From contig CAWDTM010000008.1 of NCBI GenBank assembly GCA_963805305.1, positions 50,679 to 114,678 on the forward strand: a stretch of 64,000 nucleotides of DNA. Direction: 5' to 3'. Below the pieces are notes generated by a model. The model worked only from the letters and a program-made list of their open reading frames with translations, ran no database searches and had not been told where the DNA came from. Position 1 is the stretch's first letter, and the number at the start of each line of letters is the position of its first letter. Source of the stretch: an uncultured Chloroflexia bacterium (GTDB lineage: Bacteria; Chloroflexota; Limnocylindria; QHBO01). The position numbers were made by a program, and so were the translations under genes. Shown piece after piece: positions 584-24,750 of the stretch.

Positions 584-1590
584 CGGCGCATGGAGACGAT
601 CACCGGGCTCGAGCGCTGGACGCGCTCGAAGTCGGCGCGGCTGTGGATTCCCCGGTACCCCTCCCGCACCAGGACCTGGCCGCAGATCCCGCCCAGCGAG
701 TTGCCCGGTCCCGGGAGCACGAGGAGGTCCGGCGCCCATTCGCGGAGCGCGACCCGCATGCTCCCCGCGAAGTCGAACGGGGTGGTGACCTGCTCGTCAA
801 GGGTGTAGTCCCGCAGCGCCGCCGGGTCGGTGGACCAGGGGCTCCAGCGGGCGCCGCGGCCGTCGACCAGGGCCAGGCGCGGGACCTGCCAGTCCAGGCC
901 GCCCAGCCGTTGGCGGGCACGGTCCGCGACGTGGCGGACGAGCGGCGTGTGATACGGGCCGTGGAGCGCGAGCCGCAGCGGGTAGAGCCGTTCACCAACC
1001 CGGCGCGGTGGCAGGTGCTCCATGAGGTGGGCGACACCGGTCTCGGTCCCGGCGAGGACCGCGTACCCACCCAGGTCGATGCTGGGGTAGACCGTTGCGG
1101 CAGCGGCAGGCTCGCCGGTCATGGCGCTCACGACGGCGTCCTCCAGGGTCGGGTCCGGCCGCCAGTCCGTCCCGACCAACGGGTAGATGACCTGGCCTCC
1201 GGGTCCGTCGCTCGGCAGCGGCTCCTGCTGCAGGAGGCTCATCTCCTGCACGAGGCGCAGGCCGTCGTCGAAGGAGAGCGCTCCCGCGGCCGCCAGGGCG
1301 GTGTACCAGCCGAGCGAATTCCCGACCGCGACCACCGGCTCCGCATCGGGCGGCAGCGCGCCGCTGTCGATGAGGGAGATGAGGTAGATGAGCGGCGACG
1401 CGTTTGCGGGCGCGAGGTGGACCCGCGGATCAAAGCGCTCGGCCGCGTCGAGCTCCACGAGGGAGGGCAGGTCATACGTCGCGCGCACGGCTTCCGCGCG
1501 CTGTACGAGCGGGTGCGCCGGGTCCAGCGAGCCCAGGCTGGCCGACGTGTACGAGCCACCACCGGGCAGGACCAGGGCGGCGCGACTCAT
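580..1590 (-). CDS. FabD/ACP S-malonyltransferase-like acyltransferase (divergent)
   Basis: 336 aa. PGGGSY (FabD PGQGSQ), nucleophile GNSLG, HGPYHTP (FabD xAFHS). ATGA overlap with the upstream E1 gene. Confidence 0.8.
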   Translation of the reverse strand: MSRAALVLPGGGSYTSASLGSLDPAHPLVQRAEAVRATYDLPSLVELDAAERFDPRVHLAPANASPLIYLISLIDSGALPPDAEPVVAVGNSLGWYTALAAAGALSFDDGLRLVQEMSLLQQEPLPSDGPGGQVIYPLVGTDWRPDPTLEDAVVSAMTGEPAAAATVYPSIDLGGYAVLAGTETGVAHLMEHLPPRRVGERLYPLRLALHGPYHTPLVRHVADRARQRLGGLDWQVPRLALVDGRGARWSPWSTDPAALRDYTLDEQVTTPFDFAGSMRVALREWAPDLLVLPGPGNSLGGICGQVLVREGYRGIHSRADFERVQRSSPVIVSMRR

Positions 1591-3854
1591 GCCGGCGTCC
1601 GTCCCGAGGCGGCCGCCAGCGCAGCGGCCACGATCCCGTCGAGGCTCGCCAGCACCGTCATGCTCGCGGGTCCCAGTGGCACGAACGAGTCCACCGACCG
1701 GACCGATGCGAGGCGCCGGCCGACGGCATGCTCCGCGAGGTCGGCGATGATCGCGTCAGCGACGCCGCCGCCGGTGGCCCGGCATTCGTCCACCACGAGC
1801 ACCGAACCCACCCGCTCCGCTTCCTCGCGCAGGGCGGCGAACGGGAGCGGGTTCAGCCACCGCAGGTCGATGACGCGCGCGCGCACCCCATGGTCGACAG
1901 CGAGCCGGCGCTGGGCCTGGAGCGAGAGGCGCAGTCCATTCGCGTAGCTGACGAGCAGGAGGTCGGCGGGCTCATCCGGCGCGGCGCCATCGGTCTCGTA
2001 GCGACCCACCTCGCCCGGAAGGAGCACGGACGGCGGTGGCGGGTAGTTCGTCAGCCACGCGCCGTCGCCGGGCTCGTGGAGGTCCTTCTCGTGGTACAGC
2101 GCGATGGGCTCCAGGAAGGCCACGACGCGCCCGTCCTCGAGGCTCATGGCGACCGCCCCGCGCAGCATGCGTGCCGCATCGTCGCCGCGAGCCGGCACGG
2201 CAATCACCAGCCCGGGAATGTCGCGCAGGGCGCCGACGCTGTTGTCGTTGTGGAAGTGGCCGCCAAAGCCCTTCTGGTAGGCGAGCGATGCGATGCGCAC
2301 CACCATGGGGTTGCGGAATTGGCCGGCGCTGAAGAACTGCAGCGAGGCTGCCTCGCCGCGGATCTGGTCCAGCGCGTTGTGCACGTAGGCCAGGTACTGG
2401 ATCTCGGGAATCGGGAGCAGGCCGATGTGCGCGGCGCCCTGGGCGATCCCCAGGATCGATGTCTCGTCCAGCAGCGTGTCGAAGACGCGTCCCGGACCAA
2501 ATCTCCGCTGCAGCCCGTGGGTGACGTTGTACACACCCCCCTTGCGCGCAACATCCTCCCCGAAGGCGATCAGCTCCGGGCGGCGGGCCAGCTCATCGGT
2601 GAGGGCGGCGTTGATCTGGCCGGCAAGCGTCCGCGCGTTGGGGGCGGTGGCGTCCTCCGGAAGGCTGCCATCCCATGTCGCGCGCCGGGCGTCGTCGGGG
2701 AGCACCGGTGTCTCTGCCCGCGCCGCAACACGGTCGGGATGGTCGGGCGCCAGGGGTGCGACCACCTCCGCAGTGGTCATCAGCCGTGGGCGGCTCGCCG
2801 CCTCCTCGGCTGCAGCGGCCACCCGGTCGCGAAGGTCGCGCACGAGCGCGCGCAGTGCGTCCGGCGTCGCGGCTCCGGTCTCCACCAGGCGTCGGGCGTT
2901 GCGCAGGAGGGGATCGCGCGCCTCGGTCGCCTCGATCTCGTGCGTTCGGCGGTAGACGTGCTCCGCGTCGCTGCCGGCGTGGCCCCACAGCCGGACCGTC
3001 TCCAGGTGGAGGAAGGCGGGTCGCCGTGCGCTGCGCACGAACTCGATCGCCTCGGTGGCCACCTCCCACACCTCGTCGAGCTCGCCGTCTGCGTGCCAGT
3101 AGCGCAGGTGGGGCTGGTTCGAGAACGTCTCACCGATCCAGTCGGGCGGGGTCGGAACGCTGATGCCGGTTCCGTTGTCCTCGCAGATGAACAGGATGGG
3201 CATGGGGAGCCCGGTCCGGGATGCGTAGCGCGCCGTGCTGAACGCCGAGAGCGCCGTTGCGTGGTTCGCGGAGGCGTCGCCGAACGAGCAGGCGACGATG
3301 GCATCGGCGGGCAGGTCGTTCGCCACCCCCAGCCGGCGAGCCCGGGCCAGGGACAACGCGAGGCCCATGGCTTTCGGCAGGTGGCTGGCAATGGTCGAGG
3401 TCTGAGGTGGGACCCACAGCGCGCGGCTTCCCCAGACCTTGTGGCGTCCCTGGGCAATGGGGTCCTCGGCGGACGCCACCATCCCGAGCAGCGTGTCAAA
3501 GAGGGGCGTCGACCCGGGCAGCTGTCGCGCGCGGGCCATCATGAAGGCACCGGAACGGTAGTGGAGGAACGCCGGGTCCGTGATGCGCAGCCGCGCACCA
3601 AGCACCACGTTGTTCTCGTGTCCCGCCGAACCAATCGTGTAGTAGCTGCGCTCCGTCTTCTTCAGCTCGCGCGCCGCGACGTCCAGCACCCGGCTGGCGA
3701 CCTGGTCCTCGAACAGCTCGATGGCCCGCCTCACCGTGAGCGAGCCACCGGGGTGGACCGCCGTGGCCGCAGGAACCGCCGTGTCGGCAGGCGGAACTTC
3801 GGCGAGGTAGGAGTCGAGCGCTCCAGAGACGATGGCGACGCGGTCGAAGGTCAT
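1587..3854 (-). CDS. Thiamine diphosphate-dependent 2-oxoacid (2-oxoisovalerate-type) dehydrogenase E1, fused alpha+beta subunits
   Basis: 755 aa. YYTIGSAGHE, ThDP motif GDASAN...EDNG, GHAGSD, then beta-type GEDVA..GGVY, DTLLDE, EIQY, GGHFHN and a C-terminal transketolase domain. Confidence 0.88.
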   Translation of the reverse strand: MTFDRVAIVSGALDSYLAEVPPADTAVPAATAVHPGGSLTVRRAIELFEDQVASRVLDVAARELKKTERSYYTIGSAGHENNVVLGARLRITDPAFLHYRSGAFMMARARQLPGSTPLFDTLLGMVASAEDPIAQGRHKVWGSRALWVPPQTSTIASHLPKAMGLALSLARARRLGVANDLPADAIVACSFGDASANHATALSAFSTARYASRTGLPMPILFICEDNGTGISVPTPPDWIGETFSNQPHLRYWHADGELDEVWEVATEAIEFVRSARRPAFLHLETVRLWGHAGSDAEHVYRRTHEIEATEARDPLLRNARRLVETGAATPDALRALVRDLRDRVAAAAEEAASRPRLMTTAEVVAPLAPDHPDRVAARAETPVLPDDARRATWDGSLPEDATAPNARTLAGQINAALTDELARRPELIAFGEDVARKGGVYNVTHGLQRRFGPGRVFDTLLDETSILGIAQGAAHIGLLPIPEIQYLAYVHNALDQIRGEAASLQFFSAGQFRNPMVVRIASLAYQKGFGGHFHNDNSVGALRDIPGLVIAVPARGDDAARMLRGAVAMSLEDGRVVAFLEPIALYHEKDLHEPGDGAWLTNYPPPPSVLLPGEVGRYETDGAAPDEPADLLLVSYANGLRLSLQAQRRLAVDHGVRARVIDLRWLNPLPFAALREEAERVGSVLVVDECRATGGGVADAIIADLAEHAVGRRLASVRSVDSFVPLGPASMTVLASLDGIVAAALAAASGRTPA

Positions 3855-7003: not shown

Positions 7004-7332
7004 GGGCTGCGGAACACGAGGCCGGGCCGGCGCCTGAGCCACTGCGCCTCCCCGCCGGCGAGTCCCCCGGCCGGGAGGCGGTCGCCCGCTTCCTGCGCGC
7101 CCGGGGCGTGGAGCCCTATGCCTGGTCGAACGGTCCGGGAGACCGGTACGCCCCCCATGAGCATGGATACGAGAAGCTGCTGATGTGCGCCGCGGGCTCC
7201 ATCACCTTCGAGCTCGACGGCGGCGCCGCGATCCAGCTGGGACCCGGCGAGGGCTTCAGCCTGCCGGAGGGAACGCGGCATGCAGCGGTCGTTGGGTCGA
7301 GCGGGTGCACCTGCCTGGAGGGGCACCGCTAG
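7000..7332 (+). CDS. Cupin domain-containing protein
   Basis: GTGA overlap with the upstream stop. Cupin motifs WSNGPGDRYAPHEHGYEK..GSITF and LGPGE...PEGTRH. Confidence 0.85.
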   Translation: MRAAEHEAGPAPEPLRLPAGESPGREAVARFLRARGVEPYAWSNGPGDRYAPHEHGYEKLLMCAAGSITFELDGGAAIQLGPGEGFSLPEGTRHAAVVGSSGCTCLEGHR

Positions 7333-7676
7333 GCGGCCGGATCGGTCTCCGCGCCGGCGCCTGCAGACGGCCCGCGCGCCGCCGTCGCGGCCGTGCGCGC
7401 GGCGACCTCGAAGGCATTGCCCCGGTACCACCCCCCTCCGGACCGCCACGAGCGGAAGGAGGCGCGCAGGTAGCGCGCCGCGAACGGCGGGCCGTATCGG
7501 TTCCATTGCCGCACATGCTCCAGCTCGTGGGCGAGCTCGTCGGGCGCGAGCGGGCGCCAGGTGAAGACGTGTCGGCCAAGGGTGATCGCAAGCCAGTCGG
7601 GCAGGAGGAGGCGTGCGCCGATCCCGCGCAGCGCGGGATGCACGTGGAGCCGATGGTCCGGAGCTTCGGTCCCCAC
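7329..7676 (-). CDS. DUF4157-like (eCIS core/zincin) HExxH protein
   Basis: 115 aa. AITLGRHVF, LAHELEHVRQW, YRGNAFEVAA. Confidence 0.75.
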   Translation of the reverse strand: MGTEAPDHRLHVHPALRGIGARLLLPDWLAITLGRHVFTWRPLAPDELAHELEHVRQWNRYGPPFAARYLRASFRSWRSGGGWYRGNAFEVAARTAATAARGPSAGAGAETDPAA

Positions 7677-7680
7677 CCGC

Positions 7681-8649
7681 TCAGTCGTGCTGACGCCGAT
7701 GCGATGGTGGCCACGGGCCGGGCGCCAGGAGCAGGTCCGGACGGTTGCCCCAGCGCTTCAGGAATCGGTAGAAGTTTCGTCGGCTGAGCCGGTCGCGCTC
7801 CGCGTCCGGCAGGGACGCGTACCCACGGTGCTCGTGCCGCTCGAGCGCCAGCGCAGCGGTTCGCATGGCGCGCCAGCCCGCGGCGCGCGCCGCGAACGAG
7901 AAGTCCAGGTCCGCATTTCGGTAGAAGCGGAACCGTTGGTCGAAGAGCCCCACGTCGCGGAGAACCTCGCGGCGGACCGCAAGGCAGTAGCCCTCGACGG
8001 CATCCACCTCGCCGGGAGGGGCCTCGCTGAACTGGCGCAGGTCGGCGGACCGCACGCCATACCCACCGGCGATCCCCACCTGCGGGCGCTCGAGAATGGC
8101 GACCAGCGGACCCACGAAGTCGCCGACCGGCTCCAGGCAGGTGTCGATCAGGATCGTGACCTTCCCCCGGCTGCGCCGCAGGCCCAGGTTCACCGCGTCG
8201 GCCCATCCGAGCCGTTCGCTCGTCCGCAGGACGACGGGTTCCCCCGGCAGCACGACCGCGGCCAGCAGCGGGTCGAGGTCGTACGAGGGTGCGTTGGCCA
8301 CCACCACCAGCTCCCACCGGTCGCGCGGTGGGTGGGCGGCCAGTCCGGCAACGAAGCGGGCGAGGTCGGCCGGGTGCTCGTCGGCCACGACGACCAGCGT
8401 CGCCGTCATGGTGGCCGGCTCGTCGAGGAGGCTGGCAAGGTCGTCGGCCCGCGCGTAGCCGACCCTGTCGGGAGTCGCGGCGGCCAGGGCGGGGCGCAGT
8501 GTCGTTCCCGTTGGGCCGTCGGCCACGTCCCAGCCCAGGGCGCGAAGCTGATCGCGGAGGATATCGGCCCGTGCGAAGTCGCCGGACGACCGCGCCGTAG
8601 CGCGCTCCTCGACCAGTCGTGCCGCTTCTTCGGGGATGGCGTCGCTCAC
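7681..8649 (-). CDS. Glycosyltransferase family 2 protein with N-terminal CysS C-terminal (anticodon-binding-like) domain
   Basis: GTG 8649 (GTGA overlap). The N-terminal ERATARSSGDFARADILRDQLRALGWDVADGPTGTT matches the CysRS C-terminus. GT-A motifs follow: ELVVVAN, LGWADAVNLG, GYCLAVRREVL.DVGLFDQRF. Confidence 0.8.
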   Translation of the reverse strand: MSDAIPEEAARLVEERATARSSGDFARADILRDQLRALGWDVADGPTGTTLRPALAAATPDRVGYARADDLASLLDEPATMTATLVVVADEHPADLARFVAGLAAHPPRDRWELVVVANAPSYDLDPLLAAVVLPGEPVVLRTSERLGWADAVNLGLRRSRGKVTILIDTCLEPVGDFVGPLVAILERPQVGIAGGYGVRSADLRQFSEAPPGEVDAVEGYCLAVRREVLRDVGLFDQRFRFYRNADLDFSFAARAAGWRAMRTAALALERHEHRGYASLPDAERDRLSRRNFYRFLKRWGNRPDLLLAPGPWPPSHRRQHD

Positions 8650-9041
8650 GGACGCGGGCGTCCTGTGCCGGCGGGCCAGGGCGCCGCCCGGCCCCGGGGA
8701 CGACCATCCGCGTCGCGCTCGAGCTTGTGGGCGCCCGGGGTGGGCGGGTCGTAGCGCAGGTGCTCGACCGGCTGACCCGCGACGAGGTGCCGGGCCACGA
8801 TCTCGTCCGCGTCGTCGGGGGTCAGGGCCGCGTACCAGGTTCCCTCCGGATACACGACCGCCATGGGCCCGTTGCCGCACTGGCTGAAGCAACCGGCGTG
8901 GTTCACGCGGACGCGATCACCCAGGCCGCGAGCCTTGACCAGGCTCTTCAGGCGGGCGTGAACCGCCAGCCCGTGACCATCGACCGTGGGGCACCAATCA
9001 CCGCCGGTGCAGACGAAGACATGGCGTTCGAAGACGGGCAT
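8646..9041 (-). CDS. Thioredoxin-like [2Fe-2S] ferredoxin
   Basis: ATG 9041. HVFVCTGGDWC...GCFSQCGNGPMAVVYPEGTWY provides four Cys ligands. Confidence 0.88.
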   Translation of the reverse strand: MPVFERHVFVCTGGDWCPTVDGHGLAVHARLKSLVKARGLGDRVRVNHAGCFSQCGNGPMAVVYPEGTWYAALTPDDADEIVARHLVAGQPVEHLRYDPPTPGAHKLERDADGRPRGRAAPWPAGTGRPRP

Positions 9042-9190
9042 GGGGACGAAACGTACTCCTGGCGGCAACCGAAAGTACCGGATGGTCGGACGGCACCCCA
9101 ACCTTACTATCCGATCAGGAACCGCGCCGACCGCACCCAACCCGACCGACGCGATCCCGATGCCAAGAGTGCCCCAGGAGTTCGCAACCG

Positions 9191-22921: not shown

Positions 22922-23467
22922 CTACACGCTGAAGAGCATCCGGAGCGAGAGCGCCGCGACGGCCACGCCAGCGGCGGCGGGTACCAGCGAGCGGCGCGCG
23001 CGGGAGGCTGCGCCCGCGAAGTTCGGCGCCAGGATGGATGCCACCAGGGCTCCGACCAGCCCGGCCGCTGCGGCCAGGAACGCCTGAGCGACCGTCGGGG
23101 AGGCGGCGCCCACCTGTCGCTGCCCGGCCAGCGCCGCCCCCACGATGACGGTGACCAGGGCGGCGAAGAGGCCGGAGCCAAGGGTGCCGGCGAAGGCGCG
23201 CACCGGCCCGATCTGGGTGCTTCCGGTGGCGACGGCGCCCACGACGAGCACCGCGGCGACCAGCCAGGTGCCGGCCACCGGGTGCGTGGAGGCGGCGGGC
23301 GCCGCGAGCCAGAACCAGGCGAGGGCGACGATGGGCGCGGCGAGCATGCCCAGGGCGGCGACCCAGGTCAGCGGGCGCGTCCAGTCCTCCGGGTCCTCCG
23401 GCGGCACGACGGCGCCGAGCTTCACGCTGACCGGGACCGCATCCTCCTCGGGCACCGGGGGCGTCAT
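22922..23467 (-). CDS. Hypothetical membrane protein
   Basis: 181 aa, about 5 TM. ATGA overlap with the upstream ligase gene. Confidence 0.75.
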   Translation of the reverse strand: MTPPVPEEDAVPVSVKLGAVVPPEDPEDWTRPLTWVAALGMLAAPIVALAWFWLAAPAASTHPVAGTWLVAAVLVVGAVATGSTQIGPVRAFAGTLGSGLFAALVTVIVGAALAGQRQVGAASPTVAQAFLAAAAGLVGALVASILAPNFAGAASRARRSLVPAAAGVAVAALSLRMLFSV

Positions 23468-24750
23468 GCGATCGCTGCGCCTTCAGGCCTCTCGGCCGAC
23501 CCGACAGCTTGAACCGTCGCGAGGCGGAGGCCCAGGATGCGCGCTCCGAGCTCGCGCACCATCCAGCCGGCCTGTACGGCCAGCTCGGGGTCCGCATCGG
23601 CCCTCGCCAGACCAGCCAGCGCGTGCAGCTCCGGCAGCGCGGCGGGCGTGTCGAGGTCGTCGTCCATGGCAGCCAGGAAACGCGCGCGATGCTCGGCCAC
23701 CACCGGCTCGAGGGTGCCGGGGTCGGCGTGCGCGGGTGCCAGCGGCTCCAGCTCCTCCGCGATGCGGGCGGCGTGCCGCAGGGAGGCGACGCGGGCTGCC
23801 GAGAGGTCGAGATCGGCCTCGTCGAAGTCGACCTCCTCGCGGTAGTGGTGGCTGACGAGGTAATGCCGGATGGCATCGCCGGAATAGGAGGCCAGGAGGT
23901 CACGCACGAGGACGAGATTGCCGAGCGACTTGCTCATCTTCTCGCCGCCGTAGCGCAGCATCCCCGCGTGCATCCAGTAGCGCACGAAGGGACGCGTGCC
24001 GCTCGCTCCCTCGGACTGCGCGATCTCGGCCTCATGGTGCGGGAAGACGAGATCGCCGCCACCGCCGTGGAGCTCGAACTGCGGGCCAAGGTAGGCCATG
24101 GACATCGCCGAGCACTCAATGTGCCAGCCCGGCCGACCCGCGCCCCACGGTGAGGGCCAGGACGGCTCGTCGGCCGCGGATGGCTGCCACAGGACGAAAT
24201 CGAGCGGATCGCGCTTGCCCGCCATGTCCGGCACGTTGCCCCGCTCGTTCGCGATGGGCAGCATCGCCTCGCGGGGAAGGTGCGAAAGCTCGCCGAACTG
24301 CGGGCGCGAGGCCACCGAGTAGTACACGTGGCCCTCGGCTGCGTAGGCGTGCTCGCGGGCGAGGAGCGCGGCGATGATCTCCTGCATCTGCGCGATGTGC
24401 TGCGTGGCGCGCGGGAAGTGATCGGGCGGCAGCCAGTTGAGAGCCGCCATCTCCGTGAGGAAGGTGGTCACGTGGCGGTTGCCCAGGTCCAGGTAGTCCT
24501 CCCCGAGCTCGCGCGCCTTGCGCAGCAGGTCGTCGTCGACGTCGGTCAGGTTCTGCACGTAGGTCACCGGGTGACCCAGGTACTCGAGATACCGATGGAG
24601 CACGTCGAAGCTGATGTACGTGAAGGCGTGGCCCAGGTGACCGGTGTCGTAGGGCGTGACGCCGCACACGTAGAGGCCCACCGGCCGATCGCCGATGGGT
24701 TCGAAGGGCAGCGCCTCGCCGCGGCGGACGTCGAAGAGACGGAGGGTCAC
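23464..24750 (-). CDS. Cysteine--tRNA ligase family paralog, MshC-like (cysteine ligase), lacking the anticodon-binding domain
   Basis: GTG 24750 with TAGAAT 7 nt upstream. [58 protein letters not shown]. Ends shortly after DDLDTPAA. Confidence 0.85.

Follow-up and report, generated by a model that had tools for sequence, protein, structure and literature searches.

We describe a protein from a 64,000-nucleotide stretch of DNA of an uncultured Chloroflexia bacterium (this whole stretch is called the window) in which the anticodon-binding C-terminal domain of cysteinyl-tRNA synthetase (CysRS) stands in front of a glycosyltransferase domain. According to the reading we prefer, to which we give a probability of about 45%, this protein, hereafter GT, is a tRNA-Cys-docking glycosyltransferase whose acceptor lies on, or is held by, tRNA-Cys. 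We know of no tRNA glycosyltransferase described from bacteria; tRNA sugar modifications are known in animals. A bolder form of our reading makes GT the first bacterial tRNA glycosyltransferase, in which a captured CysRS reader, often welded to a second CysRS, directs a sugar into the anticodon arm of tRNA-Cys, and this form we consider somewhat unlikely. The GT family joins a sugar-transferase to a module predicted to read the tRNA-Cys anticodon, often together with a spare CysRS, and gives a concrete way into what may be a new tRNA modification, or else a glycoconjugate pathway that depends on tRNA-Cys.

Table 1. Positions in the window of the GT domains, the adjoining genes and the short CysRS paralog.
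Feature	Position	Strand	Basis
CysS_C domain of GT, residues 1-53	8491..8649	-	Pfam PF23493, Foldseek, conservation
Linker of GT, residues 54-80, with conserved S73-x-L75 (SLLD-type)	8410..8490	-	pLDDT 58-72
GT2 domain of GT with predicted GT-A fold, residues 81-300	7750..8409	-	Pfam PF00535, AF2, Foldseek
C-terminal tail of GT (residues 301-322) and stop codon	7681..7749	-	pLDDT 39-63
Thioredoxin-like [2Fe-2S] ferredoxin gene, upstream of GT	8646..9140	-	NCBIfam NF041612
Gene of a 115-aa protein with invariant HExxHxxQW motif, downstream of GT	7329..7676	-	Locus comparison
MshC-like short CysRS paralog, proposed partner of GT	23464..24750	-	TIGR00435, TIGR03447, CysRS tree

The GT gene (positions 7681-8649, minus strand) encodes 322 amino acids comprising a CysS_C domain, a linker and a GT-A/GT2 domain (Table 1). 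Its GTG start shares bases with the TGA that ends the preceding ORF (GTGA), and alignment A1 places the N-termini of homologues at this start. In the linker, S73 is found in 286/307 and L75 in 292/307 family sequences, and the tail is variable and poorly conserved in alignment A1. GT has no transmembrane segment, with a maximum KD19 below 1.6 in all 28 sequences considered, which marks it as a soluble and probably cytoplasmic protein.

The upstream ferredoxin scores 63.7 bits against NF041612, below the cut-off of 150, and its homologues start at a Met at position 9041. It was rejected as a partner of GT because the adjacency is limited to the window's own family, where it occurs in 9/12 loci, as against 0/10 loci outside that family. 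Downstream, the HExxHxxQW protein gene begins 4 bases past the GT stop codon and probably belongs to the same operon. Among the 25 loci that hold this second family, it follows GT directly and on the same strand in 19 and is second downstream in 3 more. The HExxHxxQW protein has no significant match in PDB or Pfam; a weak match to Pfam eCIS_core was seen in 6/11 members (best E 0.0096). Apart from CysRS, clustering of 90 loci revealed only lineage-specific synteny around GT. The lineage-specific neighbours include rhomboid, cupin and DUF3352 proteins, Zn_peptidase_2 with SBP_bac_5, a cNMP-binding protein with FtsH, ManC with PepF, and YqeY with a Lon-substrate-binding domain.

The sequence-only reading had proposed that the N-terminus of GT matches the C-terminal domain of CysRS, and this was borne out by three comparisons of sequence. 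Pfam CysS_C (PF23493) matches residues 3-50 with 31.5 bits (cut-off 23, E 1.9e-7; 34.2 bits when the whole genome was scanned), residues 7-52 pair in phmmer with residues 414-459 of E. coli CysRS, which has 461 (1li5/1u0b), and a profile built from 34 family N-termini retrieves five matches in PDB, all of them CysRS chains (best E 1.9e-12) and always at the extreme C-terminus. The AF2 model of residues 1-58 (pLDDT 89.4) folds into two helices and a beta-hairpin that can be superposed on the C-terminal domain of CysRS. Its top Foldseek match is 1u0b_B, with TM 0.73, an rmsd of 1.2 A and 43% identity over 46 aligned columns, and probability 1.00. The E-value of this match is only 0.011 because the CysS_C model has just 58 residues, and no match reaches E 0.001. 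By sequence and predicted fold, the N-terminal domain of GT is thus a bona fide CysS_C. Another, weak PF23493 match, on contig 7 of the same genome, was set aside since the ORFs there are unlike CysRS by eye.

In the E. coli CysRS-tRNA-Cys complex (1u0b), Arg427 and Asp436 form hydrogen bonds with G34, which stacks on Trp432 and is linked by a water network to Arg423 (PMC12684709), and Arg427, Trp432, Asp436 and Arg439 have been mutated in order to alter the anticodon specificity of CysRS (PMC13449415). The equivalents of E. coli R423, R427, W432, D436 and R439 in GT are R16, R20, F25, D29 and R32. We counted these residues in 307 family sequences, 178 stand-alone and 129 fused to CysRS, with gapped rows excluded. 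R16, R20 and an aromatic residue (W, F or Y) at position 25 are each present in 178/178 stand-alone and 124/124 fused sequences, D29 in 177/178 and 124/124, and R32 in 177/178 and 125/125. D44 is also invariant or nearly so among the 307, and A28, G39 and W40 are likewise near-invariant in the stand-alone forms; identity at most other CysS_C positions is only 0.2-0.9. In these alignments, no positions of the domain are better conserved than the equivalents of the G34 contacts, in stand-alone and fused proteins alike.

That a GT-A fold follows the CysS_C domain, as had been claimed, is confirmed by Pfam Glycos_transf_2 (PF00535; residues 90-208, 37.9 bits, cut-off 23.3) and by the AF2 model of full-length GT (pLDDT 89.6), which has GT-A topology at residues 81-300 and a pLDDT above 90 over most of that domain. 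At least 500 PDB entries match the model at E <= 0.001, and all are GT-A enzymes among the matches listed. The best are polypeptide GalNAc-transferases, WrtF and 6p61 (E 2.6e-11 to ~4e-10), with TM 0.47-0.58 over the query and 13-20% sequence identity; viral models returned only generic GT2 proteins of phages and giant viruses. By profile and predicted fold, GT is therefore a GT2 family member, and it is predicted to be catalytic.

The two motifs singled out earlier, LIDTC as an atypical DxD site and FYRNADLD, are located at residues 167-171 and 242-249. No family member departs from D169 (306/306 non-gap sequences) or from D247, and position 171 is Ser in 302/307 sequences, the window protein being one of two with Cys. 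Conservation in the domain extends to D169-x-S/C171, E173, D216, D247 and H272-E-H274-R275. The family has a signature of its own (D-x-S, VDAxEGY, RFYRNxD and RHEHR), and a metal site may be completed by H272 and H274, both of them invariant. The C-terminal helix of the domain, residues 282-300, is conserved and basic-aromatic (SRRNFYRFLKRW). Two other identities were considered for GT and rejected. The mycofactocin glycosyltransferase MftF (TIGR03965) is its best NCBIfam match but scores 44.3 bits where the equivalog cut-off is 280, and the cysteine--tRNA ligase model (TIGR00435) gives 17.9 bits against a cut-off of 340, confined to model positions 419-464; GT has no class I catalytic domain, the part with the HIGH and KMSKS motifs and zinc ligands.

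GT homologues occur in 105/401 sampled Chloroflexota genomes and also in MAGs labelled Actinomycetota, forming 119 clusters at 50% identity (E <= 1e-30). ESM Atlas returns only the family's own clusters, named automatically by the two Pfam domains, and full-text searches found no paper on CysRS-glycosyltransferase fusions or on this family. In many lineages, a second, full-length CysRS ends in the CysS_C-GT2 module. These fusions are 588-754 aa long and have the CysS_C motif in 120/120 among the matches listed. The two that we scanned with Pfam contain tRNA-synt_1e, CysS_C and GT2 domains, and the fused CysRS scores 419-444 bits against TIGR00435 over model positions 1-463, as a full tRNA ligase does. 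Where free modules occur, CysRS may be close by: in the sister family of the window's, the CysS_C-GT2 gene lies tail-to-tail with the housekeeping cysS, and a convergent cysS lies at most 3.5 kb from GT in 13/73 loci with a recognised GT gene (Pfam was run on one). The type-B CysRS of the window's genome is on another contig.

In the tree of the module, the stand-alone forms of the window's family (f1), of family f2 and of the Actinomycetota-labelled MAGs make up one clade (100/98), and the stand-alone forms of family f24 sit among the fusions (96/95). By this placement the module has gone from fused to free, or back, at least twice, and each time CysS_C was retained with the glycosyltransferase. 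Eight called proteins of 241-268 aa have the glycosyltransferase signature and no CysS_C, although their called N-termini may not be the true ones, and one genome-encoded fusion (in genome G068) has no recognisable CysS_C. A further glycosyltransferase-only form, in genome G336, is only apparent, its gene being cut by the contig end. The GT gene is dispensable, being absent from 5/16 other genomes of the window's family.

In the mechanism we propose, the CysS_C copy would dock GT on tRNA-Cys by reading G34-C35-A36, as in CysRS, and the catalytic domain, held on a linker of ~27 residues, would take a sugar from a nucleotide-sugar donor and pass it to an acceptor that is part of this tRNA or is held by it. 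An anticodon-arm nucleotide would be the most likely acceptor; the cysteinyl moiety of Cys-tRNA-Cys is a less likely one, which at the CCA end would lie almost out of the linker's reach. In the CysRS-GT2 fusions, a single bound tRNA could be charged as well as glycosylated. We infer that GT binds tRNA, and that tRNA or Cys-tRNA is its acceptor, from the true CysS_C domain, the conserved anticodon contacts and the fusion to or adjacency with CysRS. These features lend indirect support, from sequence, to one half of the earlier proposal, which had offered either an RNA-targeted glycosyltransferase or an enzyme docked on a nearby ligase; the docking half is not supported.

Several observations count against this reading, among them the exceptions without CysS_C and the dispensability of the gene described above. 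The DxD site of the family is D-x-S and that of the window protein D-x-C. The closest folds are those of peptide and oligosaccharide glycosyltransferases, with no nucleic-acid glycosyltransferases among them, and the net charge of the GT domain is negative in 25/28 aligned members, an acidity atypical of an RNA-handling surface. The neighbourhood comparison found no recurrent tRNA-modification or nucleotide-sugar genes beside GT. Finally, of the genomes of the window's family that lack GT, the two in which the tRNA was matched do not differ from the carriers in the anticodon arm of tRNA-Cys. Over the first 50 bases of the tRNA, the anticodon stem-loop is identical in 17 genomes of this family, among them 6 with GT and 2 without. 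The tRNA-Cys of the window's genome has A36-A37-A38, and MiaA is present. A glycosylated hydroxy-isopentenyl-A37 was considered as a product and dropped, as a search of this genome (95.9% complete) gave no MiaE, the hydroxylase.

The same observations bear on an alternative in which tRNA-Cys is a guide or signal: CysS_C would bind tRNA-Cys, and the glycosyltransferase would modify something else, either a protein that accompanies tRNA-Cys, such as CysRS or an elongation factor, or some other acceptor whose production is adjusted to the supply of tRNA-Cys. Such a role would accommodate conserved anticodon contacts beside an acidic catalytic domain whose nearest solved folds are peptide O-glycosyltransferases. 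It also has precedents, since domains derived from aminoacyl-tRNA synthetases can be tRNA sensors (GCN2) and Lgt of Legionella is an example of a GT-A enzyme with a preference for a complex of factor and tRNA. However, an anticodon-binding domain alone could probably not separate charged from uncharged tRNA, no candidate acceptor protein except CysRS recurs near GT in the neighbourhood comparison, and fusion would put the glycosyltransferase at the anticodon end of the CysRS-bound tRNA, where direct action on the tRNA seems simpler. We regard the guide or signal role as improbable, though worth keeping in mind.

Lower still do we rate a small-molecule pathway, in which GT and a cysteine-activating CysRS-type enzyme (the type-B CysRS, fused or neighbouring), or Cys-tRNA-Cys, would make a cysteinyl-glycoside. 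The product could be a thiol resembling mycothiol or bacillithiol, or S-glycosyl-cysteine, and CysS_C would be kept since Cys-tRNA-Cys would serve as cysteine donor or scaffold. All four fusion-bearing genomes checked encode a further CysRS besides the fused, complete one, which is thus an extra copy, and the G068 fusion retains the catalytic CysRS body; both findings would suit such a pathway. The window's genome offers it an MshC-like ligase and an MshB-like deacetylase (180 bits, cut-off 224), but its best MshA match reaches 139 bits where 462.5 are required, so that neither of these two companion mycothiol genes is found there above cut-off. Genes for a deacetylase, an acetyltransferase or inositol/malate steps do not recur beside GT, the distribution of GT is uncoupled from that of the MshC-like paralog (see below), the score of the fused CysRS is that of a full tRNA ligase, and reading an anticodon would bring the enzyme no obvious gain.

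It is also conceivable, but quite improbable, that CysS_C is a relic left over from a broken CysRS-GT2 fusion and that GT is an ordinary envelope or polysaccharide GT2 enzyme. The called family members without CysS_C could be taken this way, the conserved basic-aromatic helix at the end of the catalytic domain could be an interfacial membrane helix, and the f24 stand-alone gene comes after a GDP-mannose pyrophosphorylase-type gene. A relic would be expected to drift, but the RNA-contacting residues are invariant in the 178 stand-alone proteins from several lineages, and CysS_C survived the independent switches between fused and free states. The absence of a transmembrane segment from GT and of a polysaccharide gene cluster around it also speaks against such a relic.

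The short CysRS paralog, 14.8 kb from GT, had been described in the sequence-only reading as missing exactly the domain that GT carries. It contains tRNA-synt_1e and DALR_2, ends past the DALR domain and has no Pfam CysS_C match at E <= 1, so that the domain is indeed absent. MshC-type proteins lack CysS_C as a rule, however, and its absence is therefore no sign of gene fission. The match of the paralog to TIGR00435 reaches 390 bits and is limited to model positions 1-375; against the MshC model TIGR03447 it scores 365.2 bits, below the equivalog cut-off of 485.1, and E. coli CysRS (343 bits) is nearer to it than the MshC structures 3c8z and 8hfm (298 bits). It thus resembles MshC in its length and in consisting of a CysRS core that lacks the anticodon domain, and differs from it in its sub-cut-off TIGR03447 score, in its greater closeness to E. 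coli CysRS and in the want of an MshA above cut-off in its genome. In the CysRS tree it groups with other short paralogs of ~400 aa (100/100), nested with type-A CysRS, whereas the GT-fused and GT-associated CysRS are type B, apart from this MshC-like clade.

The distributions of the two genes are likewise uncoupled. In family f14, GT is found in 0/25 genomes and orthologues of the paralog, ~50% identical, in 23 among the matches listed. In family f2, GT is present in 22/23 genomes. Of the genomes of this family, 18 have no paralog-level match at E <= 1e-90, and in the remaining five the matches go no further than E 1e-91 to 1e-94, as those of an ordinary CysRS do. In the window's family, the five other genomes without GT have the paralog. 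A predicted complex of the paralog (alignment A2) with GT residues 1-60 (alignment A1) scored 0.00 against a mark of 0.32, which is neutral on binding. The idea that CysS_C recruits GT to this ligase in place of the ligase's absent domain thus looks very improbable and a functional tie between the two is not supported: the ligase does end after its DALR domain and lies 6-26 kb from GT on one contig in G000 and nine other genomes of the window's family, but such loose synteny in one family is expected from shared ancestry.

A tRNA-Cys-docking glycosyltransferase, the reading we prefer, may be set beside several known systems. GT shares with the CysRS C-terminal domain (PF23493; E. coli ~407-461, 1u0b) its homology, its predicted fold and the five contact residues. 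In CysRS this domain ends the chain, whereas in GT it is N-terminal, no synthetase catalytic domain is present and the glycosyltransferase comes after it. For the catalytic domain, the best structural matches are the polypeptide GalNAc-transferases (GT27) and the bacterial GT2 enzymes WrtF and 6p61, the latter from Leptospira, and the D-x-[H/S] ... H arrangement common to this comparison plausibly fits metal binding. These enzymes use other acceptors, and GT has no lectin domain and has signature motifs of its own. LysX (LysRS-MprF) and GluQRS/YadB resemble GT in that a synthetase, or a piece of one, has been joined to or has become an enzyme that acts on tRNA or uses aminoacyl-tRNA. Their chemistry differs, being lipid aminoacylation and glutamylation of Q34, and neither has a glycosyltransferase or a free anticodon-binding domain.

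B3GNTL1 is a GT2-type GT-A enzyme. Mammals have tRNA glycosyltransferases in QTGAL (B3GNTL1) and QTMAN (GTDC1), which transfer a sugar onto an anticodon-loop nucleoside of specific tRNAs (PMC11755703). Unlike GT, these are eukaryotic proteins that act on queuosine in tRNA-Tyr and tRNA-Asp and have no anticodon reader derived from an aminoacyl-tRNA synthetase. Closest to GT are the CysRS-GT2 fusions of Chloroflexota (Dehalococcoidia, SAR202 and others), named 'cysteine--tRNA ligase' in the databases, which are 35-44% identical to GT over 91-98% of its length and have motifs in common with it. They differ in having a complete type-B CysRS in front, whereas GT is the free module. Hundreds of database entries under that name are bifunctional fusions or, like the window protein, no ligases. 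If the bolder form of our reading is true, charging and glycosylation would take place on the same bound tRNA in many Chloroflexota.

The amino-terminal CysS_C domain of the 322-residue glycosyltransferase is real and not a chance match. Pfam CysS_C (PF23493) covers residues 3-50 (31.5 bits, cut-off 23), phmmer places residues 7-52 against 414-459 of E. coli CysRS (1li5/1u0b; 461 residues), and a profile of 34 family N-termini (alignment A4) matched five PDB chains, all of them CysRS and all at the extreme C-terminus (best E 1.9e-12). The AF2 model of residues 1-58 (pLDDT 89.4) comprises helices 7-21 and 25-37 and a hairpin at 40-53. For this model Foldseek ranks first the synthetase chain of 1u0b, CysRS bound to tRNA-Cys (E 0.011, probability 1.00; TM 0.73, with 43% identity and rmsd 1.2 A across 46 columns), and second B. 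burgdorferi CysRS (E 0.075); these E-values are weak because the domain is tiny. The agreement of Pfam, phmmer, profile and Foldseek therefore bears out the sequence-only reading, which had recognised this domain and had also placed the gene start correctly: the GTG overlaps, as GTGA, the TGA of the upstream ORF, and homologue N-termini (MSE.IPEE) align there with VSDAIPEE. The G+C of the window is 68-75%, and its genome (G000; 2.76 Mb, 8 contigs) is 95.9% complete. Close homologues bear names that put it in Chloroflexota, 'Candidatus Limnocylindria'.

Positions of the features discussed, in the window, elsewhere in its genome and in loci (L) of sampled genomes
Feature	Sequence	Positions	Strand	Remark
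Ferredoxin-like gene	window	8646-9140	-	first in window order, then the glycosyltransferase
Longest ORF at the glycosyltransferase locus	window	7681-8892	-	begins TTG
Glycosyltransferase gene	window	7681-8649	-	GTG start at 8649
115-aa HExxH protein	window	7329-7676	-	after the glycosyltransferase
Short MshC-like CysRS paralog	window	23464-24750	-	DALR_2 present, no CysS_C
tRNA-Cys(GCA) gene	G000:C8	472820-472893		only copy in the genome
Repeat of tRNA-Cys 3' 44 bases	G000:C8	485921-485964		exact, 13 kb downstream
Sole full-length CysRS of G000	G000:C7	252316-253698		type B
MshB-like deacetylase	G000:C3	254271-255236		180 bits, just under cut-off 224
Fusion with His-rich tail	L021	2368-4770	+	also in the G393 and G287 fusions (L034, L039)
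Fusion without CysS_C	L131 (G068)	1278-3368	+	697 aa

As part of one article has it, Arg427 and Asp436 of CysRS in 1u0b hydrogen-bond G34 of the tRNA, Trp432 stacks on G34, and a water network links G34 to Asp436 and Arg423 (PMC12684709). Part of another names Arg427, Trp432, Asp436 and Arg439 as the four residues randomised in re-targeting CysRS to another anticodon (PMC13449415). In the phmmer alignment, adding 407 to a residue number of the window protein gives its E. coli equivalent. Conservation was counted over 307 sequences, 178 stand-alone and 129 fused to CysRS (the latter trimmed to their last 345 residues), leaving out rows gapped at the position concerned. R16 (E. coli R423), R20 (R427) and an aromatic W, F or Y at F25 (W432) occur in 178/178 stand-alone and 124/124 fused forms, D29 (D436) in 177/178 and 124/124, R32 (R439) in 177/178 and 125/125, and D44 (D451) in 178/178 and 128/128. 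At most remaining CysS_C positions identity is only 0.2-0.9 in this alignment; A28, G39 and W40 are also near-invariant in the stand-alone forms, which come mostly from Limnocylindria relatives and include those of family f24 and of Actinomycetota-labelled genomes. In this pattern purifying selection falls on exactly the RNA-contacting residues of the domain.

A word-indexed protein search scored 8000 candidates, of which 3033 matched at E <= 1e-3; the top 120 of the 3033 are 306-339 aa long and 63-100% identical, most with PF23493 and PF00535. Names in the sources are 'GT2 family glycosyltransferase', 'cysteinyl-tRNA synthetase' and 'glycosyltransferase [Candidatus Limnocylindria bacterium]', and ESM Atlas clusters are automatically called 'Cysteinyl-tRNA ligase anticodon binding/Glycosyl transferase family 2'. 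In a search of 1.84 billion cluster representatives, E <= 1e-3 was reached by 6316, 1e-10 by 652 and 1e-30 by 119. In an even sample of Chloroflexota the gene was matched (E <= 1e-10) in 105 of 401 genomes, one of which (G344) is flagged unpublished: 28/28 genomes of f24, 22/23 of the sister family f2, 11 of the 16 others of the window's own family f1, 9/12 of f23 and 5/6 of f5, and none of the 25, 24 and 25 genomes of f14, f10 and f21. The five f1 genomes lacking it are 92-98% complete. Species-representative genomes yielded 599 candidate stretches, and 539 of them were confirmed. Of the 80 best among these 539 loci, most bear the label Limnocylindria, Chloroflexia or Chloroflexota, and eight the label Actinomycetota or Actinomycetes (43-46% identity over residues 5-310 or 5-318); the few other taxon labels among these 80 may be a binning effect. 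Another genome tally takes in six genomes flagged unpublished (G227, G038, G344, G272, G173 and G145); no claim here depends solely on genomes so flagged.

The module of CysS_C and GT2 domains is recurrently tied to full-length CysRS. Of the matches listed from outside the class to which the window belongs, about 44 sit in open frames of 720-930 aa; five that were read span 737-880 aa, and two fusions both gave tRNA-synt_1e + (DALR_2) + CysS_C + Glycos_transf_2 in Pfam. A search for longer relatives returned 284 proteins, the best 120 of which (588-754 aa, 35-44% identity, covering 91-98% of the window protein) are named 'cysteine--tRNA ligase' and come from Dehalococcoidia, SAR202, Chloroflexota MAGs and one sponge metagenome record; the CysS_C motif is present in 120/120 of the best-listed fusions. 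In all four fusion-bearing genomes checked, the fusion is an extra copy beside another full-length CysRS; G111, G287 and G393 additionally carry a short paralog of ~400 aa, and G393 a free CysS_C+GT2 gene as well. In f2-type loci the free gene lies tail-to-tail with a full-length cysS. A crude gene caller run over 90 loci recognised the glycosyltransferase in 73 and missed it in 17; the 73 comprise 7 fusions, 13 loci in which a CysRS gene converges on it from less than 3.5 kb away (distance 1 to 2724 bases; tRNA-synt_1e + CysS_C in the one neighbour run against Pfam) and 53 without.

A 28-row tree of CysRS cores, taken as the first 400 residues, has two groups at 100/100, labelled here type A, with classical CysRS and the short paralogs, and type B, with the fused CysRS (85/95), the glycosyltransferase-adjacent CysRS (100/100) and the only full-length CysRS that G000 encodes. 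Chloroflexota thus hold two deeply separated full-length CysRS types, and some genomes have both. In a tree of the module (37 rows; both trees midpoint-rooted for drawing only), free forms of f1, f2 and Actinomycetota-labelled MAGs make up one clade (100/98) and those of f24 fall among fusions (96/95). This placement therefore indicates at least two fused/free switches, with CysS_C kept each time. Forms without the domain also exist: the G068 fusion has none recognisable between its two parts at E <= 0.1, and eight called proteins of 241-268 aa, with starts as called, bear the glycosyltransferase signature alone. A similar-looking form in G336 is cut by a contig end. Another glycosyltransferase match in G068, more divergent than the first, falls in an open frame of 812 aa. 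Fusions of f24 and f66 type end in a His-rich tail of HxH repeats (~60 residues), absent from the window protein, which may be a metal-binding appendage.

In the window, the ferredoxin-like, glycosyltransferase and HExxH genes overlap or lie 4 bases apart. The ferredoxin adjoins the glycosyltransferase in 9 of 12 f1 loci and in 0 of 10 from other lineages. The HExxH protein (~98-115 aa, with invariant HExxHxxQW and WY..N.FE..AR motifs) is directly downstream in 19 of the 25 loci holding it and second downstream in three more; neither Pfam nor the PDB gave it a significant match, the best being a weak eCIS_core (E 0.0096). Other lineages show other neighbours, and none but CysRS recurs across lineages. 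The free f24 genes (L026, L027; G233, G138) follow a same-strand mannose-1-phosphate guanylyltransferase-type gene (NTP_transferase + ManC beta-helix), a weak hint of GDP-mannose as donor, and precede an oligoendopeptidase F gene. In two loci (L021, L023; G111, G273) the fusion is immediately preceded by a same-strand YqeY-like gene (GatB/YqeY domain).

The catalytic domain matches Pfam Glycos_transf_2 (37.9 bits, cut-off 23.3), and its top NCBIfam match, MftF, reaches 44 bits, far below the cut-off of 280. Modelled in full by AF2 from the 28 rows of alignment A1 (pLDDT 89.6, pTM 0.77), the protein has a GT-A domain at 81-300 behind a low-confidence linker at 54-80. The best PDB matches in Foldseek are polypeptide GalNAc-transferases (E 2.6e-11, TM over query 0.52-0.58), with WrtF fucosyltransferase and the Leptospira GT2 6p61 also among the best; viral models gave generic GT2s only. 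Across the 307 family sequences D169 is invariant (306/306 non-gap rows), as is D247 (307/307), and position 171 is Ser in 302 and Cys in two, including the window protein, so that the family motif is D-x-S and not DxD; the 'LIDTC' and 'FYRNADLD' of the sequence-only reading are correct. Also conserved are E173 (300), D216 (301), H272 (306), H274 (303) and R275 (294), and a basic-aromatic helix, S289-R-R-N-F-Y-R-F-L-K-R-W300, is family-wide. Among 28 aligned members none has a membrane segment (maximum KD19 <1.6), and the net charge of the domain is negative in 25.

The conserved RNA-contacting residues, the retention of CysS_C through independent fused/free switches and the recurrent association with CysRS together make tRNA-Cys binding the simplest function one may propose for the domain. 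We therefore tentatively regard the protein as a putative tRNA-Cys-directed glycosyltransferase, with a probability of roughly 45%. In the fusions, the single CysS_C that would hold the anticodon of the CysRS-bound tRNA stands directly before the glycosyltransferase, which would thus lie near the anticodon arm, ~70 A from the CCA end; an anticodon-arm nucleotide is a more likely acceptor than the cysteinyl group. Counting against a tRNA acceptor are the acidic catalytic domain and nearest solved folds that act on peptides or glycans, the forms without CysS_C, the absence of the gene from five f1 genomes, and the ordinary tRNA-Cys loop (C32 U33 GCA A37 A38), which is identical in 17 family genomes, including two without the gene (the comparison takes in G402 and G408, flagged unpublished). 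A tRNA serving as guide or signal, with the sugar going to another acceptor, is the best of the rivals and in our judgement unlikely. As to the tRNA gene itself, the repeat of its 3' end is the pattern left when an element integrates into such a gene; in G285, too, a partial copy of this kind lies 1.3 kb away from tRNA-Cys.

A cysteinyl-glycoside pathway in which the glycosyltransferase is coupled to cysteine activation is rather less likely still. Short MshC-like CysRS paralogs (~400 aa, 50-58% identical) occur in many Chloroflexota families, and G000 has an MshB-like deacetylase and no MshA above cut-off (best 139 bits against 462.5); they may belong to an undescribed Cys-aminosugar thiol pathway in Chloroflexota. 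That CysS_C is a relic on an ordinary glycosyltransferase, as its loss in some forms might suggest, is very unlikely given the same three facts that favour tRNA-Cys binding. Docking on the short paralog, one of two options in the sequence-only reading, is highly improbable, the paralog being of type A and its distribution uncoupled from that of the glycosyltransferase in f14, f2 and five f1 genomes.

The paralog gives 390 bits on TIGR00435 over model positions 1-375 only, 365 on the MshC profile (under the cut-off of 485), and 343 with E. coli CysRS against 298 with MshC among solved structures. Within type A it clusters with the ~400-aa paralogs of G111, G287 and G393 (100/100). It is not a front half lost by a fusion that split. 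Orthologues of the paralog are widespread (~50-58% identical, frames mostly ~390-560 aa; the tally includes G038, G272, G227 and G173, flagged unpublished) and occur in all 16 other f1 genomes, including the five without the glycosyltransferase. The 150 best matches listed include 23 f14 genomes; in f2, 18 of 23 genomes have no match at E <= 1e-90 and the other five only one at 1e-91 to 1e-94, where ordinary CysRS also score. In G000 and nine further f1 genomes a single contig carries both genes, 6-26 kb from each other, a proximity we read as inherited gene order.

The glycosyltransferase with CysS_C is thus real, conserved and unstudied, its architecture visible in domain databases and its meaning not; a full-text literature search returned no paper that treats the family or a fusion of CysRS with a glycosyltransferase. 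LysX, GluQRS, GCN2 and Lgt are systems with which a putative tRNA-Cys-directed enzyme may be compared. Among tRNA glycosyltransferases, those described in part of one article are QTMAN and QTGAL, from mammals only (PMC11755703).
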